Below are positions 29,961 to 50,047 of a DNA stretch of 64,000 bases, piece by piece. Every line of letters starts with the position of its first letter. Position 1 is the first letter of the stretch. Source of the stretch: Octopus sinensis (lineage: Eukaryota); contig NC_043002.1 of NCBI RefSeq assembly GCF_006345805.1, positions 94,984,001 through 95,048,000 of the forward strand, given 5' to 3'. A program made the translations under genes and the position numbers. The notes under the pieces were generated by a model. That model saw nothing but the letters and a program-made list of their open reading frames with translations, searched no databases and was not told the origin of the DNA.

Positions 29961-30779
29961 AACAGTGAGTTTGGCTGCCAGTATTTCAAAAATTAAAGTT
30001 TATTGAAAATTTTAAAATTTTGTACATTAATATACTTTTCCAAGCTGAATTGCTGGAGTTATTTCACTTTTTCCAGAAAAATATTTTTGATCATTTTCAC
30101 CCAGTCAAAAAACAGGATTTGGAAGCTGTCATTTTATGCATGACTGCACATTTTGTCATCAACATCCTGAAAATAGTATGTGTTGTCAAGAAAGAGTAAA
30201 AACATAACTTTTGTTTTAAGCATTGCGATAGCATGAACTTAAAAGATTTATCCAAAAACGTTATTTAGCTGTTATTTTTTAGCACACCTCAATGACAAAA
30301 AGAAACAAGTAAACAACACATCTTTTCTAAAATAGCACATTACAAATTAGATATTTTTAAAACACAAACATTTTATTGACCAGTTCATTGAAAACAAAAG
30401 TTAGAAATGCATTCAATCAGTTTCTCAAACAAATCACAATAAATTTACATGTTCAATTTTCAACAGATAGGTAGAATTTCCAGATATTTAAAACAGTAGA
30501 ACACACCATCAACAAGTGGTTTCAATATATTTGTCAACAAGTGCTTTCTTGCAGACAAATGAGTTCTCATGCTCCACTGGAAACAGGCATGAATATATCT
30601 GTGGCTAACAATTGGCTAAAATTATCTAAAATTTTCAAACTTTAATTGCTAATATCTCTTTATTTATTGATTTATAGCAAAATTGGTTTGCATGTCATTC
30701 TCCAGCCTATAAAAGTATATCATTACACTGAATATGAAATGAATTCAAACAATTGATACTGGCAGCCAAACACACTATG
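29961..30779. mobile_element. Non-autonomous DNA transposon with about 22-bp TIRs
   Basis: aacagtgagtttggctgccagta / tactggcagccaaacacactatg; no clean TSD. Confidence 0.65.
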
Positions 30780-31091
30780 ACCCCTTGGGATCCATGTAAG
30801 GTTTTGGGGGTCAACGCAAGCAAGATAGTAAATTAGGTTCACAATAATATTTCATGGGTCCATGAAAAACTTCTGCTTTAGATTATTTATTGCAAGAAAA
30901 AACTAGGTTTCTTTCTCTGATGTCTTACAGAATTCAACCTACACAAGTGAATATGTGATAAGCAAAATAAGAATTTTAAAAGAAGGGTCTATAAAACTAG
31001 TTTTTAAGTATCAAATGGCTATGGGGGTCCACCAGAGTAAAATAGCAATCAAAGGGATCTATAGATAAAAAAAAATGGTTGATAAGCTCTG
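30780..31091 (-). mobile_element. hAT-like element fragment, same family as 25264-26263
   Basis: aaatggctatgggggtccac...caaagggatc is approximately the reverse complement of 25615-25664. Confidence 0.6.
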
Positions 31092-32941
31092 GTTTAAAGG
31101 AAACAAAAGTGTTATATATCTGATGGGTATGTCTATAGTGGTGAAAATGGGAAGTATAGATGGAAAGTTTTGTGTGTTGTAGAGCTGGAAATAAAGTGAG
31201 TAGTTATTGTGGGAGCTTTCTCAAGAGGAGTGCTGCTTATTTAGGTTGAGGAATATTGAGTAGAAACATTTCCACAAATTTGATAAAGACTCTCTTGTCA
31301 ACAGACCAAAAGAACTGATTGTAGTTTGATTGATGGGAGAGCTTGCAGGGCTGATGCATATTTGACCAATGATAATGTAATACTGGTGGAGCTCTGATTA
31401 ATTAACTGACATGAAGTGTTGGTATCCCACAGTTTGTAAATTCAAATTGGGTGTATGTGATGTATTAGGAGCAGAGATGGCACTGGCTTGGTAGCAGCTA
31501 GGTTTAGGGGTGGGAAAGAGATCAAGCATTTTGCAGTGTCTGTGTATATCGAAAAATAACATGAGATGATGATACTAACAGTTAGATGATATTACTGAAT
31601 GGGAAAAGATTCACCATCTGCCCTAGTAGTGTCAGTGTGAGAGGAGTGTGAGAGACAGGAAGAGTTGTGAGCATTGAAGTCACTGAGGACATTTACTTCA
31701 AAGTGAACTAATGCAAGATACATATTCTCAATGCAGGATGAAAGTTAGTTAAACGGTTATTGGTGGTGGTGGTGTATGTGGTGGTGCTTAGAGGAATTCA
31801 GTGTGATAGAGGTGGCAAAGGAATTTAGAGGAATAAGGAAGGCAGAGGTTGAACCAGAATAACTGGAAACCTTTGTTGCTGATATTGAGGTAAATGATGT
31901 GGAGAATGAATTCTTCATTTACACAGATGTCACCTTTCAGTTTCAGTGCAAAGTTAGAATATAGAACCAGGATAACAGAGGTGAGCTTTAAGAGGTAAGG
32001 GGTGAGAGATTTGTATTTTCAAAGGGAACAGGATGTATAACTTCTGTGGTAGCAATAGGCTTCAAATAATAAACATACACATGCTGAAGATACTGTGAAC
32101 CAGTATTGTAGATGGTAGCTGTTGATATTTACAAAAAAATCTTGAATTTGTAGTATGATGTTATTCTTCGCAAAATTTATCAAGAATGAGTCCTGGCTTT
32201 TGGTTTTCATAGAAAGATAAAAAAAAAATATACGTTTTACAACACCGGCATCACAGATATTGGGTTAAAATTTTCAGAAAACTATATGGCTTGGTTTTGC
32301 ACAAAACTAGTTTAAATTAAATTTAAGATTAAAGGCTAATTAGAGAATTATTACACAAGTTTCATTAGATGTTTATTTATTAGCAATCAAGTTTTAAAAT
32401 GCTTATTTAAAAAAAAATATTCATCTAAATAATTATAATATTGTATGCTTTTACATTTAGCTATACAATGGGGAAATAAATATATTTCAGGTCCTCATTT
32501 ACAGAGCTGGTGATGATATTTATGCAGCCTTCAAAGCTTTGATGTCATTATTATAATTATAATATGGTATAAAAAGTAATAATTGATAATTAACAAAGTA
32601 TTACTTCATTAAAAGACAGGGGGAGGGAGAGAGAGATGGAAGGGGAGAGGGAGAAGGAGAGAGAGTGAGGTGGAGAGAGAGAGGTATCACGTATGAGTTG
32701 TAGTTTAGCCTCCAGGTCAGCCCTGATTGAGCAAAAGCTTTCCAACTGTGACCATTCCATACTTTTCTAGGCATTATGTAACATGGAAAATATTGCCAGT
32801 GTGCCTTTCTTTCTAAGAATGTGGGGTATGTTTTAATAGAGATTTAGCTGTTATTTCTACTAGGTTGAATGAAAATGTAGAGGTTCACCATTGACTCGTA
32901 TCTTTATTAATCAACTAGAAGAGGAATGGCAATATTGATGA

Positions 32942-33171
32942 GTGGCGAATTGGCAGACACGTTAGCGCACCGGGCGAAATGCTTAGCAGTATTTCGTCTG
33001 CCATTATGTTGTGAGTTCAAATTCCGCCAAGGTCGACTTTGCCTTTCATCCTTTCGGGGTCAATAAATTAAGTACCAGTTACGCACTGGGGTCGATGTAA
33101 TCGACTTAATCCCTTTGTCTGTCCTTGTTTGTCCACTCTATGTTTAGCCCCTTGTGGCTAGTAAAGAAATA
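32942..33171 (+). mobile_element. Full-length tRNA-derived SINE family D with 11-bp TSD
   Basis: B-box-like gagttcaaattcc; central gcctttcatcctttcggggtcaataaattaagtaccag (Meta-domain-like, from memory). TSD aatattgatga at 32931-32941 and 33172-33182. Decayed copies at about 8200-8430, 10210-10410 and 21490-21690. Confidence 0.88.
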
Positions 33172-33427
33172 AATATTGATGATCCTTTTACAGAGTCTCC
33201 AAGAGAAGTAAATAGAAGTTGCTCTCAAATTGGAGACCCAACCTGAATAAATACAACAGAGTAGACTTTGCTAAAGAACACAAAGGGCAGAGAGTGGTGT
33301 TAAACTGAGCAATGGCTTAAATCTGTTACAGAAAAATAGGAATGTTCCCTCCAATGAGCTTTAACACAAGGTTTGAAATTTTAGGGGAGAAGGCTTGTTG
33401 ATTACATCAATGCCAATTGCTCAACTG

Positions 33428-33733
33428 TGGAGGCACATGACCTAGTGGTTAGAGTAGTGGACTCTCGGTCGAGGGATTGCGGGTTCAAATCTCAGACTGG
33501 GCGATGCGTGTGTTTATGAGCAAAACACCTAAGCTCCACACGGCTCTGGCAGAAGGTAATGGCGAACTTCTGCTGACTCTTTCGCCACAACTTTCTCTCA
33601 CTCTTTCCTCCTGCATCTTGCAGCTCACCTGCGACAGACCGGCGTCCCGCGTCCAGGTGGGGAACCTATATGCCAAGAAATCGGGAAACCGGCCCTTATG
33701 AGCCAGGCATGGCTCGAGAAGGAACAAACAAAA
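33428..33733 (+). mobile_element. SINE (family C-related) with 13-bp TSD, inside a decayed minus-strand family D SINE
   Basis: TSD aattgctcaactg at 33415-33427 and 33734-33746. Confidence 0.85.
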
Positions 33734-33934
33734 AATTGCTCAACTGGTACTTATTTTATCTTTATTGACTCTGAAATGAAGAAAGGCAAAGTCAACTTCA
33801 GCAAAATTTGAAATCAGAACATAAAGATGAACAAAATGCCACTAAGCATTCAGTCCAGTATGCTAACCATTCTGCCAGTTCGCTGCCGTTTTTGCTTACC
33901 TAATTTAAGACCAAAGACTTTCTCTCTTTCTCTT

Positions 33935-34745
33935 TCTCCAGTCATTTGACTGTGGCCATGCTGGAGCACCGCCTTTAGTCGAGCAAATCGACCCCAGGGC
34001 TTATTCTTTGTAAGCCTAGTACTTATTCTATCGGTCTCTTTTGCCAAACCGCAAAGTTACGGGGATGTAAACACACCAGCATCGGTTGTCAAGCGATGTT
34101 GGGGGGACAAACACAGACACACAAACATATACACACAAAAGCATATATATATATACGATGGGCTTCTTTCAGTTTCCATCTACCAAATCCACTCACTAGG
34201 CTTTGGTCAGCCCGAGGCCATAGTAGAAAACACTTGCCCAAGGTGCCATACAGCGGGACTGAACCCGGAACCATGTGGTTCATAAGCAAGCTACTTACCA
34301 CACAGCCACTCCTATGCCTTAGTCACTAAGAAATAATTTATCTTTTATCTTTTGCTTGTTTCAGTCATCAGACTGTGGCCATGCTGGGGCACCACCTTGA
34401 AGAATTTTTAGTCGAATGTATCAACCCAAGTACCTTTTTTTTTTTAAGCCTGGCATGTATTCTGTTAGTCTCTAAGTTATGGGGGATGTAAATGCACCAG
34501 CACCGATTGTCAAGCCATGGTGGAGGGACAAACACAGACACAAATACACACACACATACACACACGTAGTTATATACATATATACATATATACACATACA
34601 ACTGTTTCTGTCCACCAAATCCACTCACAAGGCTTTGGTCAACCCAGGTTTATAGTTGAGAACACTTGCCCAAAGTGCCATGCAGTGGGACTGAACCTGG
34701 AACCACATGGTTGAGAATCAAGCTTCTTACCACACAGCCACACCT
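33935..34745 (-). mobile_element. Two adjacent family A SINEs (33935-34318 and 34345-34745)
   Basis: Each is the reverse complement of the 23603-23997 pattern. Confidence 0.85.
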
Positions 34746-35326
34746 GTACCTGGAATTGCAGAACGTTCTTGGTCTAGATGCCACAAATTAGAATTAATCT
34801 GCAAAGAAGTTGTTCCAAAACAAACATCTTAACCACACAGTTATGCCAGAAGTTTTCATTAGAAATGTGTTAGAATGCAGGCACAAAGCATCTACAGAAC
34901 GATACAGTTGAGTCAGATTAACTACTATAGCTCTGGTTGACTGCTACCAGGTCTTAAGTATACTACGTTAATTCCATTGCATCTGTCTGAGACACTGCTT
35001 GAAAAAATGGAATATTTTAGAAGGTATACATGCAGAAAAAGATAGGGAAACCCATACGGACTCTTACACTATGCTCTCACTTCTTTCTAATGTTAATTCT
35101 TTAAAGTAACAGATGTGCTTTGAGATTTTCTTTCTACATGAGACATTAAATGAAACCAATATGAAGCAATAAAAGAAAGTAGCAATATTATGTAGGAAGA
35201 ATGAGCTCAATAGCCTTTGGTCAACTGGCATTCTTGATGCGAATAAACTTAACTTTATTGCCAGTAGATTAGCCTCAGATCTCTCTCACATATTCACAAA
35301 CACATGCACACACATCACCATCATTA

Positions 35327-35875
35327 TCTATTATATAAAATCCATTCTGTCTGTCTGTCTGTGTGTGTGGCTTCTAGGATCTCAGGCATCCTCCATCCAA
35401 TTGAGCTCAAATTTGATATGTAGATACCGACAGTATCAGAGTGTGTATAAGTCTTGAAAAAATTACAAAAATCGATTCCAGGTGAGAATGCGATCGATAA
35501 AGCCGTTTTTGTCCTACTTTTCTTCCGTCAACCTGTACATAACTGCACCTTCCATTATTTGTTGTTTTTGTACTGCTGAAAGGCACGTTTCTTTCCTGCC
35601 AAGCTTACTGTTTAAACCATGTTTGTGTTCTCCCAGTCAACAGCCTTATCATTACTGGTACTTTAAACTCTTCAGTTGCATATTTGTGTGAATAAAATCG
35701 TTTTTCTTTGGAATAGAAAAGAAGTCTATCTTTATTTCTTCTTTTGCTGGTGTCTCAAATTTAGGTTAAATCAGTGTTTCTCAAAGGGGAGGCCTATGGG
35801 ACAGTTGGACAAGTTTTGAGAAAATTTGGTTTAAATGTTTGATAACTCAGCATTGGACAGGGGGCATTTTGCTCA

Positions 35876-35910
<35 letters not shown>

Positions 35911-36248
35911 ATGGTATATTCTGTTACAAACATAGTAGAGTACAGTATAAAACTCATCCACCTTCAGATTTACCCTGTGCTATCCAGTAGTAGTATTATG
36001 CATTTTGGCATCTGTCGTGTGTGAATAGGTAACTGAAAAAATTGGAGTCAACAAGAAGGGGTACGGTTGAACATTTATTTTTAATCACTACAATTGTTTC
36101 CATGTAATGGAGAACTATGTTGCGCGGAAACAATTGTTGTGATTAGAAATAAATGTCCAACTGTACCTCTTCTTGCTGATTTCAATTTTTTCAATTATAT
36201 ATCTATACTAGCATTAAAGACCCGTCGTTGCCGGGTCATAGTGCTAGT
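35327..36248 (+). mobile_element. Helitron-like non-autonomous element; 3' limit ambiguous
   Basis: 5' tctattatataaaatccattctgtctgtctgtc; hairpin gacccg...cgggtc then CTAG|T at 36244-36248. Confidence 0.5.
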
Positions 36249-36377
36249 GCATGTATATATGTGTATATATATGTGTACATATTACATGTACATCTATATA
36301 TATACATCTACACATAAAATACAAAATACAAAGTTATATCTTGATATCGCTAGTGATAACAATACTCAAAATATATA

Positions 36378-36699
36378 ACAGACTGGAATTGTTATCCCGT
36401 CTCTTGTAATTTCGATCAATTGTATCTTGTCCTCCCTCTTGTATAGAAGTGTGGCTACAATCCAGCCTACCTCTACTTCGGGGAGGGGGGGGGGCATTAA
36501 AAAATTTTTTTCCAGGACGTCCTACGCCTCAGATATAAAGGTAAAAATAAAATATTTCCACTTTGTAAGTTCGAGTCGAGTACTCCCTTGCATGCTCCGT
36601 TGACTCAAACCTTGCTTCTATTGTGGCGAATTTACCGTCTCTGATTAGATACCTTTCATAGTTGCACCAAGACACTTTTCAATGGTGCTTTCCTCCATG
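36378..36699 (-). pseudogene. Element C: decayed L1/Tx1-type ORF1, downstream part (insertion target)
   Basis: Manual minus-strand translation across frameshifts gives MEESTIEKCLGATMKGI / RDGKFATIEARFES / SGNILFLPLYLRRRTS / PEVEVGWIVATLLYKREDKIQL. This is collinear with B ORF1 (IEEKKIEFCL, RYGTVEVRF, ENIVLLPLYREKRTS, PPEADAECLVAAV). Confidence 0.8.
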
Positions 36700-36947
36700 C
36701 TGTTTTATTATTACCCACAAGGAGCGAACATAGATGGGACAATACAATCTGATGATGGGGTCAGACACACAAATGGGTTTTTACAATAAAACGAATTTAA
36801 AAATTTTCATGAAATTACAATAAATGGACAGAAATCGAATGATGTAACAGACCGGAAGACATTACGGGTGGAGTGGGTGCGGGTTTAGCTCGGACCCCAC
36901 GAGCCCCGCCTCCCCACTGATACTTTTGGTTACGCTTGGTCTTACAT

Positions 36948-39900
36948 TTATGTTGTATCATTCACTCGCAACTTTCGTGCTACATCTTTCCATCGTTCTT
37001 CATACACTCTCCTAGTCAGGCATATTCTCTCCAGCCCTATCTTCCTTTTCAGGTGAAAGATGAAATAATTCATCAAACCAGGGCCGGAGATGAACTTGCC
37101 TGACTGTAGACCTTTCATTCTCGTCTTCCATATCACCTCTTTCGCAATTGCTACTACAACGAGAAAACGAAACTTACCTTCATTCATGAGGAAATCCGGT
37201 GGGTCAATTTTTGTAATCGACTCAGTCGACAGCTGTACTCTTCGTGTACCTGACAACAGCTGTTCGGCATAAACCCACACCTCAGACACGTCCGGACAAT
37301 GAACAATAGCGTGCGGGACGGTTTCCCTATCCCGCCCGCATCTTGGACATATCGGACTGTCTTGGCCACCGTGCCTTGCGAGTTTATCCCGAACAGGTAG
37401 AGCTCCTCTGTAGCATTGCCATGCCAGAGACTTCTGGAAGTTGTCCAGTGTCCTCGGCTTGAACGTACGTTGGAACAGACTGGCCAGCTGATTATCGTCG
37501 AGACCTAGGGTTTCCCCCAAGGTATCTTCACATTCCGCCTCTACCAACCCTCTATAGAAGAATGTGGTGGAACCCCCACCGCAGGCGTTGCCCGAGCGAC
37601 GGAATAGCAGGAGAGCCTTGCGACACTCCGTGTACCAAGTACCAAGTTTCGATCTACGATTCAGCCAGGTTTCCCATCCACCGAAACTAGTGAACTTGGG
37701 AAACATCAGTTTTGCTAGCGAGACCACACCCGTTCACCATCCAGGTAGAGCCACAGATGTCTTAACCTCAGCGCATGTCTGCGCATCATCAGCCAAGGCA
37801 TCCCTAGCCCACCCTTTAACGGTTGTTGACAGCAAGTAGAGCGTTTCACAAGTGGTTTCCCGCCCTTCCACAAGAAGTAGAAGAGCTGTCTTTCCAACTT
37901 GATCAACCACGAATCAGGGCAAGGAACGACGGAAAGGCGGAAGGTGATAACCGATGCGATAAACACATTGGCCACTTCCGCCCTCCCTTTCAGGGATAGC
38001 CACCGCCAAGACCAGGTCTTGGCTACTGCAGCCACCTTGCTCGTTACCTCGCCCCAATTCTTCTCTATTTGGAGGTCTGGACCGAACCAGACCCCTAGCA
38101 ATTTAATCGGACCCTCCGTCCAACGTCCCACGACGCTGTCAGGAGGCATCGACTTGCCTCTCCAGGTGCCGAGTTGCAAGCCGACTGACTTTTCGCGATT
38201 AACTTTTGCTCCTGTCACCGTCTCGTAAACCTCTATGGCCTTGCCTACTTTACATAGGTGGTCCATTTCGGTTACGATGATGGTGATGTCATCCGCGTAC
38301 GCTGACACTGATTTTCCATTACCTGGCTGTCTCGGGATGCCGCTCAGTTTTCGCAGTAATGGCTCTAGAGCCATCACGTACAAAAGCGGGGAGAGCGGAT
38401 ACCCTTGACGAACCGAGCGTTTGATTTTGAACGGCTTCGACAAGAAGCCATTCACCCGAACTACCGAGTCGATGTTATCATAAATTTGGATAATCCACCT
38501 GAGGAAGCCAAGGCTCAGCCCGAACTGTGCCAGGGCAGATACCAGGTAACGATGGTCGACCCTATCAAAAGCTTTAGATTGGTCTAAATGGACCAGTGCC
38601 CCACCCTTGCCAGAATCACTATTAAACCCCTCTATAGTGTACCGCATTAGATGGAGATTATCCTGAATGGATCTGCCCGGAACGGCACATGTCTGTGCCC
38701 CTCCGATCAGACCATCCGCGACACGCGCCAATCTTTTCGATAACACTTTGGCCAAAATCTTCAACTCTGTGTTTAGCAGAGTGATGGGCCTGAAATTATC
38801 AATGCACTCCCCCTTGCTCGGGTCCTTTCTGACGAGAGTCACTACTCCCCGGCACACAGATCTGGGTATAAGCCCGTTCTGCTGCCAGTTCGCATAGACC
38901 TCCGCCAGTAGGTGCCCGAACAAGTCTGGCATACTCTTATATAACTCATAGGGTAGACCATCCAAACCCGGCACCTTGCCCGCGCTGCAGTCCACCATTG
39001 CCTCAACCACCTCCTCAGGTGTGATTGGCCCTTCACAGCCCTCCGCATCTCGCCCCAATAAGCGCAGCAGCCCGTCGAGTAGGTCCGTAAAGGCCCTCCT
39101 CCTATCCAGTCCGCCGCACTCACCGAAAAGCTGAGCGAAGTGCTCCTGAAAGGCCTCACACATCTCCTCGGGTTCGTTTATCATCTCACCTTGTTGGTTC
39201 GTCAAATATCGAATCGTGGCATCGTTACCATGCTGTGCTTCCACCACTCGGGCCCATCTCACGGCGTTGATTCCTTCACATCCCATATGGCGGATTCTAG
39301 CCCTGACAATGCAGCCCATGTGTTTGGCCTTGAGGTGCTGGTTTAACACCAGTCTCTTGGACGCCACCTGAGCCGCAGAGCCAGTTTTCATGGCTTCCTC
39401 TAATTCCTTAACTAGAGTAGTTTCCCTTCTAGCCTCTCTAGCCACTACTCCTATGCTATATCTAATAGACTCAAACTTGATGGCTTGTTTGAGGGCGTAC
39501 CACCATTTGTTATTAATGATGGTACCAGATAGTGCCCTCTGAATTATATCCCTAATCCGGTCTTTGTACTCCTTAATCGCCAAAAGGGACGTATTAAGTT
39601 TCCAGTAACCGGATCCTCTATTTTTAACCTTATCTATGTCAAGCTTACAAGTGACCATTTTATGATCACTGTAGCTGATCGGGTAAAACTGTGGACACTT
39701 AGCTATTTTACTGTCTACTTTTCTAATTAGTATTCTATCTAAATATGACCTGGAAGATCCGTTGCTGTTTGACCATGTCCACAATGGAGCGTTCGGAAAT
39801 TCCAGCCTATAAGGATCTGCTAGCTCAAAGCGGCTTAGCAGTTCCATGAAGCCACTGTTACCTTTTCTATCTGGACGCGAGCCAACACAATCTACATCCG

Positions 39901-40341
39901 CTTTGCAAATTGTGTTAAAGTCTCCTAGCACAACTAATGAATGCGAAGTACCAAGAAAGTTTTCTAGTTCACAAAAATAATCACTTTGCCCTGTATGGTT
40001 GGGTGCGTAAATTGCAACCAGTCTGATAACTTTACCATTACTGAACGTCAAATCCATGACGACCAGCCTACCTTCTGGATCTGCAAAAATTAACTTTTTC
40101 TCAGAAACCCGGTTTCTTTTTATTAGGACCAACACCCCACTTCCACCGTAGGACTGCCAGGAGAGAAAAAACTCTCGTAGCCGTCAAACAGCGGGAGCAG
40201 ACCTTTTGGCCCCTCTAACTGGGTTTCTGTAGCAACAATAACATCTAAATTACGCGACCTGATATCATGCAGGAAGCGACCTTGCTTCCAGCCTGCTCCC
40301 AGGCCGCGCACATTCAAACAACCAACATAAATGTAATCCAT
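36948..40341 (-). pseudogene. ORF2 of element B: APE endonuclease, reverse transcriptase and C-terminal Cys/His motif; two frameshifts (near 40130 and 37720)
   Basis: ORFs 40123-40341, 37715-40135 and 36948-37727 carry LNVRG, ETQ, GDFN, LDRI, SDH (EN); PGLDG, FRPITLLN, DQSKAFDRV, RQGYPLSP, YADD (RT); CPRC..ETVPH...C. Confidence 0.93.
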
Positions 40342-40349
40342 ACTTACCT

Positions 40350-41723
40350 TTATATCAGTGGTTCGGTTTTCTCTTGTTCTTCTAACTCTTTTTCTGGGCC
40401 TCGTGGGGGAGTCCGACGTAGGCCCTCGAATATATGTGGAGATGTCACATCCAATCTAAGTGGGCCTACGTCATGGAAGAATTCGGATTTTATCCGCCCG
40501 TAATCCTTCCGGCCTATTCTGTAGATTACAAAGTCATTTTTCTTTTCCACTTTCTCCACTTTGGCCATAGCAGCCAACACGTTTCCTAGTCTGCTATTTG
40601 CTGCCTTTATGGCCATATATGAGTCCATTGTCTCTCTTTTCTTTTTTAAAATTATTCTGGGAGGGGTGGTTTCCGTTTTTCTTTTTTTTTTTTTCGGTAA
40701 TTTTTTTCCACCCCTCCTCATTTATCTTTTCCTCGCTCTTATTCTCCTCCGCCGCTGGTTCTGCTGTCACCGTCACCTCCACACCTTCGGTCTTCCCTTC
40801 TGGGCCGTCCGACGCTGCTTCTGGTGACACATTTTCTTCTTTTTCTCTTGGCTTCGGTGCTTCCTGCGGTTGGGGTTGGCATTCCGCCCTTACATGACCC
40901 TTCTTGCCGCAACCGAAGCACCTCGGCTTCCTGCCCTCCATGAAAACTGTTATTTTTTCATCTTCGCTGATTTTTACCGTTTCTGGAATTTCTTCCAGTG
41001 TTTGTACCTCCGCCTGAATGGCTATCACTATTTTTTGTCCTTTCCAGAACTCCTCTTCTTCCACTGTGGCCTGGAGGATGTTTATTTTTTCCTCCAGGCC
41101 TACCATCACTGCTGCCACCAGACATTCTGCATCTGCTTCTGGCGGTATGTTGTTCATTGTGATTTTTGACGTCCGCTTTTCTCTATATAATGGTAATAAA
41201 ACAATGTTTTCTGCTTTGATCGTCTCCATCAATAGTTTTTTCGCTATCTCTTCAGTGGTAAAACGCACCTCCACTGTGCCGTATCTTTTTCCTCTGTTTA
41301 TATAGGTTATTTTGTCCATTATCGGTTTCAGACAAAACTCTATTTTTTTTTCCTCGATTTTCTGTATCATTCTTGTTGCTGTGTTGTAAGTTTTATATAT
41401 AATTCTTTTCTTCTCTATATCGTTTGTTTCTGTATGTTTGTGACCACAGTCACCTCTGTGCCCTCTTTCTTTACACTGTCTGCAAATTTTTCCAGATTTT
41501 CAACATTTATTGTTTTAATCTTTTTCCCAGCTACTTCAGCAAATTTTTTCGCTGGAGTTGATGCTGGTACTGGTTTTTCTATTTTCTTGGGCGACGCCAC
41601 CTCTTTTTTCTTCGGCGACAACGCCTCTTTTTTTCTTGGTGACAACGCCTCTTTTTTTCCTGGCGACAACGCCGGGTATTCGTCCTCGCTCGTCACGGGC
41701 GAATAAGAGATGGAGGACTCCAT
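40350..41723 (-). pseudogene. ORF1 of element B: zinc-knuckle RNA-binding protein; frameshifts near 41425 and at the T-run near 40690
   Basis: Starts MESSISYSP at 41723, continues in 40594-41370 with CFGCGKKGHVRAEC (CX2CX4HX4C), ends in the 40350-40721 frame 8 nt before the ORF2 ATG. Confidence 0.88.
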
Positions 41724-41948
41724 CTTGAACAAATGGCTATAACAAGCCTTTGGAAATTCCAAATTAATTGTAGTTTTCCCCCACAGAGGGGGGAACACCA
41801 ACGTGAAGTCCTCGCGTGAAGGCTGACTTTGACAGTTAGACAGTAATGTACACAACGGTTGACAAACAATACAGAAAAACAGAGATAATACGACGAGAGC
41901 AAAATATACAAACTTACTAATAAACGCAAAAATAGCTTTCCTCCATGT

Positions 41949-43716
41949 AATTTTATTACTACCCACAAGGGGCGAACATAGATGGGACAGTACAGTCGGG
42001 GAACCCAAAATAAGAAAGCGAATGACAAGAAAAGGAAAAAATAAAAGTAAAAAATGACATATGAAAGAACATTTACAATGAGATGCAAATGCCCACTCGA
42101 TCCCCGGAATCGAGAGGTTACACCCTCGTCACATATATTTCACAAAATTTTCCTTTTTTTTTCTTCTTTCTTCTCTCTCCTCTCACAATTCTACACGTAT
42201 AGCTTTCAACTCTCTAAAGTCAATCACTGAGCCCTCAGGCAGCCGCTCTCCCACTCGAACACTCGTGTAAAATATTACACCCTCTCCGGCAGCTCTGAGG
42301 AACTCAGCGACTCTTTCTTCGGGGATCAGAGCAGTCTCCCGCCACCGATCGGTCATCCTGCTGACCCACACATGTCCCTCCGCACTACATGTCAAGTCCT
42401 TCATTTCGGGGCAGAAATGGAAGGTCACTAACTTGCAGAAGCAGCAATCCTGCTTCCGTCCCACGCTCTCCCTCGTCTTTCTTTTCGGGCCCACCTCTTC
42501 CTTGTTCTCCTCCCTTTGCTTCTCTCCCTCTCTCTCCCCGCCCTCCCTTCCCTCTTCTTCCCTCTCTTGTCCCCCTGGTTCCTTGTCCGCTCTCTCCCTC
42601 TCTCGCGCTTCACGCTCCCCTTCCTTTTCCTTCCGTGCGCCGTCCCTTCTTTTCGTTTGATTCCGATCTCTCTCTTGTTTTTTTCCCGTTGGTTCTTCTT
42701 CCCTTTTTCCCTCCTGACTCTGTTTTGGTTCTACTTCTTTCCCCTCTTTTATTTCTTTTTCCTTCATTGACCCATTATTTCCTTTCTCCCGTTGTTCTGC
42801 TTCCCCCTCCATGCTTTCTCTTTCATTTACCGCATTCTTCCCTTCTTCAAGTTCCCGCTCGCACTCCGCTACGAATTCGTATAACGGGCACTCCCCTTTA
42901 ATGTGCCCCCCCGCCCCGCACAGGTAACAGTTTGGTTTTCCTCCCTCTACAATTACACTGAGGGTCCTCTCATCTTCAATTTCCACTCTGTAGGGGAACC
43001 TTTCAATGTCCTCCCCTGTGGCCATCAAACACAGTTCCACCCCACATCCTCTCCAGTCTACCGCGCTGGACTCCTTAAAGGATTCCACCTCCACTTCCTC
43101 TTCCGCCGCTCCTAGAACAGCTGTTGCCAGCCATTCCGTTTTCACTTCTGGGGGCATATTCGGAATTCTAACCCGGACCCCTCCTCTTCCCCTGCATGAG
43201 GGCCACATTATAAATTTTTCGGCTCCCAGCACAGTGGTAGCCAGTGAGGCTGCAACTTCTTCCGCTGCACATCTCACCTCCACCGCACCAAACTTCTTGC
43301 CTCCACTCACGTAGGTTGACTTCCCCATTATGTCTCCCAGACACTTCTCGACCTCGGCCATCTCCACTCCTGCCAGCCTCTTCGTATTTTCGTCCTGGGT
43401 TCCACATGTCACCGTCTTGTTTTCCCTGTCCTCCTCTGCCTTCGCGGGGGGGACCAGCTTCACGCTATCACCCTCCCCTTTGAATAGCTTTTCACATTCC
43501 TTGAGTTCACTCTTCTCAAAGAAAACATCCCTCATGATTATCGACGAATCACTTTTTTTCCCCGTGACCCCCGCGCAAGTCGCCATGACCAGAGGGTCAA
43601 TTCACCCTCTTCGGAAGGTTTCCACACGTGGAGGCAAACGCCTCGCGCGATATTAATCACTTTACACAACAAAATTTCAACGTCTAATCACAGATAACAA
43701 CACGTATAGCTTGGAG
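41949..43716 (-). mobile_element. Element A: ORF1-only non-autonomous LINE derivative (HAL1-like), about 1.77 kb
   Basis: About 130-nt 5'UTR, a single ORF, and about 230-nt 3'UTR ending in the same tail as B. Candidate 6-bp TSD ccatgt (41943-41948) / ccacgt (43717-43722). Confidence 0.82.
42183..43586 (-). CDS. ORF1 protein of element A (467 aa, CCHC zinc knuckle), apparently A-to-G hypermutated
   Basis: Open ORF homologous to B ORF1: TYVSGGKKFGAVEVR vs TYINRGKRYGTVEVR, NMPPE vs NIPPE, EGGKPNCYLCGAGGHIKGEC vs EGRKPRCFGCGKKGHVRAEC. Confidence 0.85.
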   Translation of the reverse strand: MATCAGVTGKKSDSSIIMRDVFFEKSELKECEKLFKGEGDSVKLVPPAKAEEDRENKTVTCGTQDENTKRLAGVEMAEVEKCLGDIMGKSTYVSGGKKFGAVEVRCAAEEVAASLATTVLGAEKFIMWPSCRGRGGVRVRIPNMPPEVKTEWLATAVLGAAEEEVEVESFKESSAVDWRGCGVELCLMATGEDIERFPYRVEIEDERTLSVIVEGGKPNCYLCGAGGHIKGECPLYEFVAECERELEEGKNAVNERESMEGEAEQREKGNNGSMKEKEIKEGKEVEPKQSQEGKREEEPTGKKQERDRNQTKRRDGARKEKEGEREARERERADKEPGGQEREEEGREGGEREGEKQREENKEEVGPKRKTRESVGRKQDCCFCKLVTFHFCPEMKDLTCSAEGHVWVSRMTDRWRETALIPEERVAEFLRAAGEGVIFYTSVRVGERLPEGSVIDFRELKAIRVEL

Positions 43717-43775
43717 CCACGTGGGCAAATCTTCTTTTTTCTCTACATTATAGACAATAGTCTTTTCTTTAATTT
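43717..43775 (-). pseudogene. Element C ORF1, upstream part
   Basis: Minus strand reads IKEKTIVYNVEKK, then (frameshift) RFAHV, which joins EESTIEKCL at 36699. B equivalent: IEKKRIIYKTYNTATRMIQKIEEKKIEFCL. Confidence 0.6.
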
Positions 43776-44039
43776 AATTTTTTATTATCCATCTGGACTA
43801 TTCCATTTCTGCATGCTAATTTTATTTTTAATTTATTCCTATTCATGTGAAACCACTTATTCAAGTTCAAATCATTGATGCAATTTTATACCAATTGCTA
43901 TTTTTACTTTTGTTATGTTACGATTATATTATACTTTAGTTTGATTTTAATTATTACTTACTACATATAATTCAATTGTTATTATTATTTTTATTGTTAA
44001 AGTGAAAGTATCTGACATAAAATAGAGAAACGTTTTTGT

Positions 44040-44405
44040 TTATCTTTTAACACGTAATACTGAAATAGTGGAGAAGATATGATATTGCTATGGGCTCGCT
44101 CTAGGCAAGAAGGTGAACATTTGTTTTGCCCATGAAACTACATGGACCCTAAGTAAGGCATGTGTAAAATTTGAATGGAATTGGTTGTGTAGTTCTCAAG
44201 TTTTTGGGAATCGTAGTGGAGAAGATATGATATTGCTGTGGGCTCGCCCTAGGCAAAAAGTTCAAAATTATTTTTGCCGATGACACTCCCCGGACCCTAA
44301 GTAAGGCATGTGTAAAATTTGAATGAAATTGGTTGTGTAGTTCTCAAGTTTTAGGGAAACACACAGACAGACAGACACACATTCTCAGTTTTATATATAT
44401 AAAGA
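44040..44405 (-). mobile_element. 5' part of a Helitron-like non-autonomous element with an internal 148-bp tandem duplication
   Basis: Minus strand starts TCtttatatatataaaactgagaatgtgtgtctgtctgtc; duplicated units at 44066-44213 and 44214-44358. Confidence 0.6.
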
Positions 44406-45227
44406 TATATATATTTATTATATATATATTTATATATATATTATATATATGTGTGTGTGTGTGTGCGTGTACATATGTATGTGTATATGCATATATTCAT
44501 ATATATATGCACGCATGGAAAAGCTGATGCAAAATGTTGTGTATACATGTGTACATGTATAATTGGATATGCGTTGCATATGTGTGTGTGTGTGTGTGTG
44601 TGTTTGTGTGTACACACATACATATGAGTGAGTAAAAGAAACATCTTGTGAGAAATTTACCAATTGATAGCAAACCAAACAAACAATACGAATTGTCTTT
44701 ATAAATATTTCAAAGAGAACTTATTCAAAATTGATTTTTATTAAACTGAATGCTTTATTTATTAAATTATCTTTCAAATATTTGAAGTTTTCATTCTTTC
44801 GAAACCATATCAGAATGCAAACAAACACAGACTACAAAAAATACTAGTCTTTATGTACATTTCTACATTGTACAAGTAAAATTCTATAATATTCAAAATA
44901 ATAAAGAAAGCTAGTTGTACAATAAGTTGTTTGATATAATTCTCATTTCTAATACCCTTCTACATATTTACCTTAATTTTTTTTCTTCTGTTTTGTTGTT
45001 TTCTGTTTTTTTTTTGTTTTTTTTTTTTGGTTTGGTTCTTTCCTTGTGATTTTGAAATTTTATCTTTATTTAACACATCTTGAAATTATTTTCAAAAATT
45101 TATTTGTCATTAATATTATGTATTGTAGTAATAGACAAAAATATTCTTTACATCTTGCATGAAGATCCACGCAAAAAAAAAAACCCCATGCATGCACATA
45201 CACACATACACACATGATTATAGATGC

Positions 45228-45263
<36 letters not shown>

Positions 45264-45367
45264 GTAAATATTTTTGATTCATGCAATTAAATATTTTTTA
45301 AATGCTCAAATGTATCAACCTTTTGTCATGCAAATACATGAACATTAGGAATTTTCTTCTCTCTCTG

Positions 45368-45399
<32 letters not shown>

Positions 45400-45796
45400 C
45401 CTTCCTTAGCATGTTCATATTTATGAATATATAGACAATGATGATATACACACACACACACATATATATATATATAATCATAAATACATATATTTATGTG
45501 ACATGTAAAATCAAATTATGCTTATATGCACACACATTACATACATACAGGTACACATATAAACACAAAAGCCATGGATTCCATACACACGTCTATACTC
45601 TTACACATACTTGATACCTACATTTGCAACACCGTTATTAAGATATACAAATATGTATATGTACCAAAGATTTCTCTTTATTATTTTCATATGTATACTG
45701 TTATGAATATTCATATGACTTTTTCATTTAAAGTATACATATTTATTTACATGAGCACTCAGTCATCATTCTGAACATCATCATCATTATAAATAT

Positions 45797-45948
45797 CATC
45801 ATCATCATCGTTTAACGTCTGCTTTCCATGCTAGCATGGGTTGGACGGTTCAACTGGGGTCTGGGAAGCCCGAAGGCTGCACCAGGCCAGTCAGATCTGG
45901 CAGTGTTTCTACAGCTGGATGCCCTTCCTAACGCCAACCACTCCGTGA
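45797..45948 (-). mobile_element. Family B retroposon, 3' fragment
   Basis: (CAT)n then cgtttaacgtctgctttccatgctagcatggg. Confidence 0.8.
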
Positions 45949-45965
45949 TATATATATATATATAT

Positions 45966-46250
45966 AATAATATTAGGAAGTAAATCCAAACTTACAGGGA
46001 AAAATTAGATTTAGGATTAAATCTAATTTTACAGTATAAATATAAATTAAATTAGAGATAAAACCACTATTAGGCAAATCAAACAGTGAAAAGCATAAAC
46101 CAAAACATAGAAATAAAATTAATTAATATAATATACAAAATTTTATATTTTATATATTTTGTATATTATATTAATTAATTTTATTTCTATGTTTTGGTTT
46201 ATGTTTTTCACTGTTTGATTTGCCTAATAGTGGTTTTATCTCTAATTTAT
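45966..46250. mobile_element. Foldback repeat family, copy 2, in (TA)n
   Basis: About 90-bp arms at 46048-46250; the ccaaacttacagggaaaaatt flank is shared with 15450-15522 in reverse. Confidence 0.75.
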
Positions 46251-47239
46251 TTATATATATATATATCATCTTTCCATGTTGGCATGGATTAGATGGCTTT
46301 TCACAGTCCAAGACATTTCTTGTTGGGAGGCACTGCATCTATAGACTGGTGCTCATACTTGTCATTTGGCTAAGTTTCTATGGCTGGATATACTTTCTGT
46401 TGCTAACCATTTTACAATGTCTACTGGGTGCAGTTTTTGTGGACCCAGTTTTAGATGGATAGTCTTTCTTTCCATTCACTTGTAGGGGGCACTGCAGATT
46501 CTGTTGTAACACCAGCACAGGAGGTAGAATAATTTGTGCACTGTAAATATGGTGAGTATTTTGAAACTTAAAGCAAGCAGTCTAAGGTGGGGAGTAGAAG
46601 AGGGACAGTTACAGCCAAAAGGCCTGAAATGGGTAGTTGAGTGAGAAGATAGCAGTGTAAGTGTAAAGTGTACTCAATATCGAAGGAAGGGTACATTTGT
46701 TCAGGTAACTGAAGAGGGAAACAGGAGAGAGAGAGAGAGAGAGAGAGAGAGCAGTAAGACCAGAATAGGATGGAAGTCAAAGAAGAGTACAATTGGAAAA
46801 AGTAGCGATATCTAGGGGTGGAGTTTGGAGAAGAATAGCAGAAATGGATAGAGGTAAGGCTAAATGATGAAATGTTAGCAAGAGTAAGTGATAAATGACA
46901 GAAGAAGTGGCCCACAGGGAGACAGGAAGGAGTGTGATGGTTAGTTGCACAGCAGGAAAAAGTTAGTGTGTAGAGGGATGCGAGTGCTTCAGTGTCTTAC
47001 ATGAAGGTTTTGTGAAGGTCAAAGAAGTGAGAGTGAAGCGGATGGTGTGGTCAAAGCAAGTGGTGGAACATTGAATGATGGAGAGCTGTGAATGATAAGG
47101 AGATTGGCAAAAGGTTGGACTGTGAGCAATAGGTAGATAATAAGCAAGAGTCAAGAAGGCAAGGTAACCTTTGCAAGGTACAAAATATTTCAGCTTCTAA
47201 CACTATATTTCTGTCAGGATAAAGTGCTCTGGTCATCTG

Positions 47240-47710
47240 TAATACTGAATATCACCAGTCAGTGTGCTGTCTCCTCCATGAGACTCAGCATCTTCAGTTC
47301 ATCTCATGGTTAGCCTTCACCACTTTGTCCCAAGTCTTCTTTGGTTTCCTTCTTCTACAGATTCTGCTTAGAGTTCGTGGCACTTCATTATGCCATTATC
47401 ATCCTCCATACACATCATATACTTATAGAAGCATTGCTTCCTCTCTTGTACACTACGCTCAATTCCCATTGTACTGTCTTTCTCTCAGCTCATTTGTACT
47501 TTGGCATTCATGCATACTGACATTACACATCCATCAGAGCATGCTGGTTTTATTTCTTTGCAATTCCTCTGCATCCAAGTCTTCTGCATCACCACTGTAT
47601 TATATGACAGTTTTAACACAAGTGTCATACAATCTACCCTTCACTATAGAAGAAAACTCTTTTGTTGCCTGCAGAGGCAATTGCTCCTTGAACTTTATCC
47701 CTCCTTTTCT
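47240..47710 (-). pseudogene. Decayed RTE-clade LINE 3' fragment
   Basis: Shares motifs with 60240-60745 (cacatccatcaga, cacaagtgtcata.aatct.cc). Confidence 0.55.
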
Positions 47711-48565
47711 GATTAACAAGGAAAGCTGTATGCTTGACAGTACTGGAGTTCTGTCTTCTTCCCCTCTTACTAATGTAATTTTGAAGCCTCTTAATTCTAG
47801 GGTTTTGATTCCATGCAAACTAGTTGACAAACGGAGACAACATTGGTTTGAAAGAACCCTTCAGTCTTATTGAGGACATAGCAACCTCTCTATTGCTGGT
47901 ATCTCAATAAAATGCTTTCAACACACCCTGTAAAATGATTTGTCTCAGGAAGGGTTTTCAGCCATAGAAACTATGCTATAAGAACTAGTTCATTGGCTTA
48001 TATAATCTTAAACTCCCCTTATTTTTTTATTCTTTTCTTGCTAAGTAGATCTATAACTTTGCTTGCCTTCAAGTTACTTGGTATAGTTCTTTACTCTGCA
48101 CTTTCTCCAGTCTTTCCAATCTCATCTCTTTGCTTTTGTGATTCTGTTTACCTAACATTCCAACATGTCACCATCAGTCTAGTTAAGTGAGAGACTTGCC
48201 TCAACCACAGAACTAGCCTGTAAGCCTCAGCAGGTTGTCTATAGGACTTTCCAGTTGTTCTCTATGATTTAAGGCCCTATACCCCACTTTCACCCAAGGT
48301 TTCAACTAGAAATACACTTCTAATTGCTTGTTAGTTCTTCAAGCTTCCATATCTTCCTTTTTATTATTGTCTTGTACCTGTGAGTCTGTCTAGCTCTATC
48401 TCTGAAGTTACTAATCACTAACTAATATTAGGTAGTACATTCTTCACCTGGAAAAGACCTAATGTTCATAACCATTTGTCTGTTCCATTTTTGTTTTCTT
48501 TCTGAGAATGTAATCTATTTGGTTTGTTTATCCACCAAATTGGGTTGATTAGGTAGTTGTCTAGT

Positions 48566-48825
48566 TAATTATTAACATAACAGAACTTGAGGAGCCTTGT
48601 TCCATCTTCATCTTTTGAACCAAAGTTTTATTAAATATATAACCAAAATTATATTAATTATTAACATAACAGAACTTGAGCAGCCTTGTTCCATCTTCAT
48701 TTTTTGAACCAAAGTTATATTTTGAACCGAAGTTATATTAATTATATAACCAAAGTTATATTAATTATTAACATAACAGAACTTGAGGAGCCTTGTTCCA
48801 TCTTCATCTTTTGAACCAAAGTTAT
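48566..48825. repeat. Three tandem copies of a ~62-bp unit with AT-rich linkers
   Basis: taattattaacataacagaacttgaggagccttgttccatcttcatcttttgaaccaaagtt occurs three times. Confidence 0.9.
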
Positions 48826-49544
48826 AGTCTCTATACTTATATGGAATCTCTCATGTCATTGTCCAACATGTCTGTTGAAGTCACCAGCTATAATGAGGAT
48901 GCTGTCATCAGATAGACAGCACAATGACCTAATGGAGTCTTTGTTTTCATCTGCCGGTCTAGATTGTGGAATGTATGTCATTATAACATCCAAGTCTAAG
49001 GTTAATTATTACAAACTCTGACCTCCTCTGACCTCCTCAGTTACTTTACCCATTTCTCTACCAATATTATGCCTGTTTTACTCATAATTTTTATACCTGC
49101 TCAGAGGAATTTATGCCCTGGCACACGCACACAGTACACATCTCTGTGCTTTTACGCTAGCATCTCAACAATTTTTGTGTGTGTGTGTTTGTGCATGTGT
49201 GTGTATGTGTGTGTTTGGTTGCCTATACGGACACACACTGACAGTCTTGTGTGACTGCCTGTCTATGTCTATTTTCTATGTCTTATTTTATGCTTATCAT
49301 AAGGTGTTGTGTATAGAAATAAATAAGGAAATGTAATTTAGCAATTTGATAAATATATAGATTAATAAGTGCTAAATTGAAATGAGGACACAGCAGTATG
49401 ACTAAAAGCCCTTTGAGATGGCATCCCAACATTGCTGCCATCCTGTGACTGAAGCTATTAAAAGAATAAAAGAGCAAACGTTTTCAAAATATATGTGTGT
49501 GCAGGCATGCATGAGTATTCTATGTATCATATACTGAATAAATT

Positions 49545-49727
49545 GTACATACATACAAAGCACACATATAAATATGTATATATATGTGTATATAATGTAT
49601 CTATATTTATATACAAGTAAATGTGTGTATGTAAATGTATGTATGTTTATAAATGTATGTGAATATATGTGTATGTATGTATGTATATATATATATATAT
49701 GTATGTATATATAATATGTGTGTTGTG

Positions 49728-49759
<32 letters not shown>

Positions 49760-50047
49760 GTACACACATACATGTATGTATGTATGTATGTATATATAAT
49801 ATGTGTGTGTGTATATATATATATATATATGTACACACATACATGTATGTATGTATGTATGTATATATAATATGTGTGTGTGTATATATATATATATGTA
49901 CACACATACATGTATGTATGTATATATAATATGTGTGTGTATATATATATATATGTACACACATACATGTATGTATGTATGTATGTATGTATGTATATAT
50001 ATGTATGTATGTATATATAATATCTGTGTGTGTGTATATATATATGT

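Follow-up and report, generated by a model that had tools for sequence, protein, structure and literature searches.

The DNA analysed here, which we call the window, is a 64,000-nucleotide stretch of the Octopus sinensis genome (NCBI RefSeq assembly GCF_006345805.1, contig NC_043002.1, positions 94,984,001 to 95,048,000 of the forward strand). Between positions 36,195 and 44,405 of the window lies a host repeat that carries two insertions, a LINE (element B) and a shorter, hyper-edited unit (unit A). The features are listed below by window position.

36,195–36,690, plus strand: left arm of the ~1.2-kb host repeat that houses the B and A insertions; joined to the right arm in four empty-site loci
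36,691–41,940, minus strand: element B, a full-length LINE, not hyper-edited, with ORF1 (with knuckle), APE endonuclease, reverse transcriptase (RT), and zf-RVT
41,932–41,947, minus strand: 3′ junction of unit A, the family target motif CATGGAGGAAAGC, common to the start of element B
41,945–43,723, minus strand: unit A, a 1.78-kb ORF1-only, non-autonomous non-LTR retroelement, hyper-edited, with full-length match to paralog units
42,005–43,607, minus strand: tract of A>G hyper-editing; by family comparison, 152 A sites out of 676 in the unit are changed
42,183–43,586, minus strand: ORF1, open, gag-like, 467 aa, CCHC knuckle kept
43,608–43,723, minus strand: 5′ ~117 nt of the unit, edit-free in all four edited copies (0 of 84 A sites versus ~18 expected from context)
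43,724–44,405, plus strand: right arm of the same host repeat, containing two internal repeats of 145 bp; an unedited control flank (0 of 269 A changed)

Unit A, its LINE neighbor, and their insertion site

The 467-codon frame that the preliminary description had reported at 42,183–43,586 was found there, on the minus strand. Pfam gives zero families for the edited ORF1, and neither the open reading frame list nor Pfam places an RT or an endonuclease inside unit A; element B matches PF03372, PF00078, PF13966, and, weakly, PF00098. The nearest named proteins to unit A ORF1 are from Octopus vulgaris, and its identity to element B ORF1 is 32% over 181 aa. The latter was the one other ORF1 returned by tblastn over the window, so the separate "element C" of the preliminary description was not recovered. 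The start of element B ORF1 (41,500–41,730, minus strand) apparently lies in another frame, reading MESSISYSP... with short Lys-rich repeats; this ORF1 looks frame-broken in the present assembly and may be what had been called element C. In its domain content and site specificity, element B resembles the Tx1 clade of non-LTR retrotransposons, to which it may belong.

Both the LINE and its ORF1-only derivative insert specifically into the ~1.2-kb host repeat. Its empty site is the family target motif, exact empty sites number 341 genome-wide, and its right arm is present at 31 of 59 loci. Insertion in the family is target-specific, and target-site duplications of 10–17 nt, such as target-primed reverse transcription leaves, were observed at the C11, C12, C8, and C9003 loci; the edited copy on C11 has inserted into an empty host site and carries a duplication of 13 nt. 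At the window copy itself, the two junction motifs agree just in part, and a clean target-site duplication is absent. Because it has no RT, a specific empty host site, and such duplications, unit A is a non-autonomous, target-specific, ORF1-only non-LTR element comparable to HAL1. Element B is likely the type of its autonomous partner, and we infer that unit A is mobilised by B-type LINEs. The ends of the host repeat appear to resemble those of Helentron/DINE-1-type non-autonomous elements.

Across the genome, unit A is found singly or as head-to-tail arrays of the ORF1-only unit with a 1.78-kb period, the target motif at each unit's start, and up to seven units (for example, loci L040, L049–L052, L069, and L079). 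Variants common to the units of one array suggest local expansion. Two arrays on C7, at 96.72–96.75 Mb and 96.83–96.86 Mb (L060–L063), lie ~112 kb apart with near-identical variant counts, either because the segment was duplicated recently or because the assembly contains it twice. At L088, L089, and L065, A units adjoin a second family whose identity to unit A is ~70% across its 5′ 450 nt. Within the window, the 3′ tails of A and B (41,950–41,990 and 36,700–36,740) resemble by eye the 3′ end of a common short repeat at ~33,140–33,170, which makes a SINE-LINE tail partnership possible. Near-perfect, MITE-like inverted repeats lie at 46,045–46,252 (97 nt, 98%) and 36,025–36,202 (77 nt, 86%), and an Rfam search over 36,000–44,600 gave zero matches at the gathering score and no ribozyme.

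Spectrum and context of the A>G changes, and their presence in DNA

When the window copy was compared with the family column majority (columns with at least 70% agreement in the larger panel), 152 A>G changes were found at 676 A columns; everything else came to 12 changes (2 G>A, 3 T>C, 2 C>T, and 5 transversions). The A>G hypermutation signature claimed in the preliminary description is thus borne out against the unit's own paralogs. In a smaller panel, 1,745 columns yielded 163 A>G, 2 G>A, 4 T>C, 3 C>T, and 6 other changes, and A>G made up 171 of the 181 substitutions relative to a single paralog (L009). The preliminary description had itself named a symmetric spectrum and a family consensus carrying the same G residues as outcomes that would speak against it; the spectrum is one-sided (152 A>G versus 2 G>A), and 120 of 124 family units hold only 0–14 A>G. 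With 2 G>A in the copy, sense G>A clusters of the APOBEC type are absent.

Within ORF1, 142 A>G changes fall in 114 codons and lead to 82 amino-acid changes. Most of the Y>C, R>G, and T>A examples in the preliminary description are true A>G changes, and about one third of its codon examples are family residues rather than edits. Against the unit's own family, Y>C holds in CAGV, TVTCG, SCRGRG, and WRGCG, R>G in YVSGG, EGGKP, and SCRGRG, and T>A twice in GAVEVRCAA, and T>A, R>G, and K>G in the knuckle are likewise true A>G. Residues of the family itself, misread because the comparison had been made with a relative of 32% identity, are the GGG codon in CAGV, the V and S of YVSGG, the C and first A of RCAA, and the Cys of ELCL. 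Five proteins named from O. vulgaris in public databases retain the unedited residues of ORF1.

The changes stop at the element boundary, as had been expected: 0 of 269 A sites in the upstream host flank are changed, the 5′ part of element B has a symmetric 6 A>G (among 167 A) and 6 G>A, and a self-comparison of the window gave no further skewed repeats. The window insertion is young, since the copy has just nine non-A>G differences from its nearest unedited relative.

The edit rate in the window copy depended on the 5′ neighbor, being 0.35 after T, 0.28 after A, 0.19 after C, and 0.02 after G, the last of these being the depletion that the preliminary description had anticipated; G was the top 3′ neighbor (rate 0.29). 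Pooled over the four edited copies described below, edits by 5′ neighbor numbered 385 of 1144 (A), 90 of 319 (T), 44 of 319 (C), and 16 of 765 (G) (p 1e-69), and by 3′ neighbor 212 of 687 (G), 73 of 331 (C), 198 of 1164 (A), and 52 of 365 (T). A 3′ G therefore stands at 212 of the 535 edited sites (40%) versus 27% of A sites, and AA pairs in the edited copies became AG 259 times versus GA 69 times. The 120 unedited units have no comparable exclusion of a 5′ G (0.0029 after G and 0.0014 after C).

The host genome encodes an ADAR2-type deaminase domain on C6, a PF02137 match with CHAE, PCG, KIESGEGT, and SCSDK. With the motifs HAE, PCG, the base-flipping GEGT, and SCSDK in place, the deaminase is catalytically intact by sequence. 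A second such domain, multi-exon, is also encoded. As described in PMC3113232, ADARs favor a 5′ U or A and take C and G less, and ADAR2 favors a 3′ G; according to PMC5625713, the 3′ G preference is linked to Ser486 of ADAR2. Because of this link and the Ser within KIESGEGT of the C6 domain, an ADAR2-type enzyme is a plausible source of the edits. Counter to an ADAR reading, the 3′ G share of 40% exceeds the figure given for bulk octopus brain hyper-editing, in which the 3′ G preference is weak (20–25% of sites; PMC5625713).

The edited letters are present in DNA. Between 61 and 72% of sampled words of the edited stretch occurred in 3 of 14 listed runs, from two studies. Two short-read DNA contigs, X1 (545 nt) and X3 (563 nt), which come from one sample that is possibly the assembly's source, span 80 edited sites without a single difference. 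From the second study, X2 contigs cover 9 and 20 edited sites with 0 differences and another 12 sites with 2 differences, and an X4 contig at depth 2 covers 18 edited sites with 0 differences; X2 and X4 are two samples with organism labels differing from X1, with 2–4 Gb of contigs and a run kind that is not on record. The comparison with the X2 contigs covers ~76% and leaves out 42,393–42,854, and no contig spans the whole stretch. No RNA run was listed as carrying the edited letters, which counts neither for nor against editing. The contigs carry G where the preliminary description had allowed that DNA might show A, and they do so in more than one sample. An assembly or sequencing artefact, arising from RNA-read polishing or a systematic base-calling error, could still lean on the best DNA run being possibly the assembly's own sample; it is scarcely credible, as the X2 and X4 contigs, from two other samples of the second study, agree with the edited letters and the neighboring repeats have no skew.

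Four edited copies in one family

The panel of 124 units was drawn from the window and 58 fetched stretches, which comprised the first 100 of 126 genome matches to a 29-nt unit A pattern with each A allowed as G, together with additional unit loci. Four of the 124 units are hyper-edited, with 106–161 A>G each, and the remaining 120 have 0–14:

Window: 153 A>G (124-unit panel)
C4:117.40 Mb: 161 A>G
C10072: 137 A>G
C11:75.87 Mb: 106 A>G

The further A>G-skewed retrocopies that the preliminary description had proposed to look for are, within this family, these three sister copies of the window unit. Three genome-wide patterns requiring G at a hot site matched only those four copies or three of them. 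The edited strand is the sense strand in all four, no T>C-edited unit is found in the 124 units, and a mirror T>Y pattern (121 matches) gave no C among the 100 matches listed. The 124 units represent 55 loci; every edited unit is the 5′-most of its locus, none has an edited twin, and at C10072 the tandem neighbors of the edited unit are unedited. Hyper-editing was found in 0 of 30 B-like pieces, all of them from loci chosen for unit A and thus no census of B.

Because their edited-site sets and haplotypes differ, the four copies probably represent four separate events, as judged from the sequences. Pairs of copies have 61–78 edited sites in common, and 35 sites are edited in all four. A single editing event, or a partly edited master copy ancestral to all of them, would account for these 35 sites and for pair overlaps above the context expectation (403 versus 275–330 expected from neighbors up to 4 nt away), and the excess could reflect a degree of common history or structure outside the model. 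Such an ancestor is nevertheless unlikely. The sharing pattern is star-like, with equal two-versus-two classes (24, 25, and 22 sites); at non-A/G columns, no allele is private to the four, and the haplotype of every edited copy also occurs in unedited units, which have A at the edited sites; the nearest relative of each edited copy is an unedited unit; and the three hot-site searches returned no copy with just the 35 common edits. A tree of 109 full units, weakly resolved, needs four changes and rejects a single clade (p-AU 0.022), a test that is soft because the family is mosaic and just two branches are starred. A single event would alter the number of events and leave the ADAR origin intact.

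Non-synonymous edits, pooled over the copies, numbered 356 against 357 expected; they are not depleted, and purifying selection on the edited ORF1 was rejected. The lack of depletion is what would be expected if ORF1 is supplied in trans. ORF1 is open in three of the four edited units versus 13 of 101 unedited full units. The open frame, which the preliminary description had counted in its favor, is weak support and was set aside as evidence for editing, as most unedited units are frame-broken in the assembly. The difference is probably a polishing effect, with near-identical A-rich repeats being polished worse than unique copies.

Origin of the edits and comparison with known systems

In addition to the edit-free 5′ ~117 nt, two of the edited copies have 0 edits over their last 400–500 nt (the 3′ end), where 25–31 were expected. 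Such differing tract ends fit duplex partners of unequal length or protected cis elements. Intramolecular fold-back was rejected as the source of the duplex: the longest predicted helix is 13 bp, the longest exact inverted match is 12 nt, and edited sites are paired no more than other sites in the predicted fold. No inverted unit copy lies nearby among the 25 longest inverted pairs listed for 30,000–50,000, and the unit occurs on both strands in none of 59 loci. Because the sense RNA (40% A) cannot self-pair and two-strand loci were not found, an antisense transcript acting in trans is the likely substrate.

If no duplex were involved, the changes could be attributed to error-prone reverse transcription without a deaminase, either through dC placed opposite A under nucleotide imbalance or through adenine mutagenesis of the diversity-generating-retroelement type. 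Such an error would account for the sense strand and the element limit without the partner that was not found here, but it is most improbable. A>C and A>T occur once each versus 152 A>G, which excludes A-to-N mutagenesis; the 15-fold exclusion after a 5′ G, together with the 3′ G preference, is the ADAR pattern; and the tract ends are sharp and differing, with the 3′ 400–500 nt, which are copied first, clean in two copies and the 5′ 117 nt clean in four.

A similar strand and neighbor bias would appear if ADAR or another adenine deaminase had acted on sense DNA, in an R-loop with antisense RNA or in a replication intermediate, and work cited in PMC12925331 describes in vitro deamination of dA by ADARs when the substrate is a DNA/RNA hybrid. 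The chance of such DNA-level deamination is very small, as the edits end at the unit, leaving all 269 upstream A sites unchanged and element B symmetric, and as the tandem neighbors at C10072 are unedited. Editing of first-strand cDNA would predict sense T>C, which was not seen in the 124 units or among the 100 mirror matches listed. Since sense A>G is bounded by the unit, and since cDNA editing would give T>C, the editing would have taken place at the RNA level, before reverse transcription.

The best explanation, to which we assign a probability of about 0.87, is that double-stranded RNA of the element was edited by ADAR and fixed by a LINE RT in the germline, leaving ~150 sense A>G changes in genomic DNA. 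The A>G feature is real, inherited, and recurrent. Its one-sided spectrum, its neighbor bias, its limit at the element, its presence in DNA, and the four differently edited copies are direct observations, and they support the claim of the preliminary description that a hyper-edited transcript was reverse transcribed and fixed, of which the enzyme and the duplex partner are the parts that we infer. The process could have proceeded as follows: (i) the sense RNA of the unit would form a duplex 1.2–1.6 kb long with a complementary transcript, probably antisense RNA from another copy; (ii) an ADAR, plausibly of the ADAR2 type, would deaminate 15–25% of the adenosines of the unit RNA; (iii) the endonuclease and RT of a B-type LINE would mobilise the edited RNA in trans, with inosine being read as G; and (iv) with the germline or early embryo as the presumed setting, the copy would be inherited. 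Editing followed by retrotransposition would have taken place at least four separate times in the subfamily.

A more general proposal, for which our confidence is low, is that octopus germline ADAR acts as a routine mutator of non-LTR retroelements and corresponds, at the RNA level, to APOBEC. The RNA behind about 1 in 14 insertion loci of the family (4 of 55) would then have been hyper-edited while paired in a trans sense-antisense duplex, and a hairpin would not be needed; the edited copies, which have no edited daughters, would be the ends of their lineages; and each would be a single-molecule record of germline ADAR2-type activity, readable from any assembly.

A-to-I editing is regarded as non-heritable. 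The edited copies show how RNA editing can lead to a heritable change in DNA, one step bringing ~150 mutations and 82 amino-acid changes. Whether and how often germline ADAR edits retrotransposition-competent RNA, and whether the edited copies are dead ends, can be tested from genome sequence alone. The copies also have practical consequences: they appear ~10% diverged although the figure is ~0.5% outside the edited positions, and repeat dating is distorted as a result; in editing screens, they can masquerade as hyper-edited RNA.

A literature search that covered subscription journals thinly turned up no paper describing non-LTR copies that had been edited by ADAR and become fixed in an animal genome, and the precedents that it returned were the avian-retrovirus and APOBEC cases only. 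ADAR-type A>G hypermutation has been described in avian retroviruses, namely, Rous-associated virus as well as avian leukosis virus (Felder 1994; Hajjar and Linial 1995; per PMC12925331). These cases are like unit A in that dense sense A>G on retroelement RNA was ascribed to ADAR and kept through reverse transcription. However, the viruses are described as infectious and edited in U3 and an inverted-repeat region, whereas unit A is an endogenous, inherited non-LTR element edited over 1.2–1.6 kb without an internal hairpin and in four copies. The "DNA-edited" LTR elements, in which APOBEC G>A scars are common among vertebrates, likewise have clustered, strand-biased deaminase scars found by paralog comparison; the account in PMC4866542 omits non-LTR elements and uses invertebrates as a negative control. 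In APOBEC editing, the target is cDNA and the outcome is sense G>A in vertebrate LTR elements, whereas unit A has sense A>G, made at the RNA level, in an invertebrate non-LTR element.

At the transcriptome level, ADAR hyper-editing of repeat-derived double-stranded RNA is described as strongest in octopus (PMC5625713), and transposon RNAs are edited in Drosophila spermatocytes (PMC12599553). These reports have in common with unit A the chemistry, the 5′ G depletion, and the repeat substrate, and germline expression is shown in the fly. Their edits are at the RNA level, whereas those of unit A are in DNA and have a 3′ G preference above that of bulk octopus brain. In human cells, ADAR1 is reported to restrict L1 independently of editing, with L1 RNA editing undetectable according to PMC5224506, a finding that weighs against the present reading. 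With regard to the element itself, HAL1 (half-L1) is also ORF1-only and mobilised in trans (PMC5753468), but it derives from mammalian L1, while unit A accompanies an octopus APE-RT LINE and forms head-to-tail arrays. Sequence-specific Tx1-clade LINEs, like the unit A family, occupy a specific site in a multicopy repeat, next to their own kind (PMC4494074). Beyond these systems, the locus offers a long edited tract that lacks a hairpin, one substrate represented by four independent molecules, unedited sequence to either side as a clean control, and a rate (4 in 55 loci) that can be put to use.
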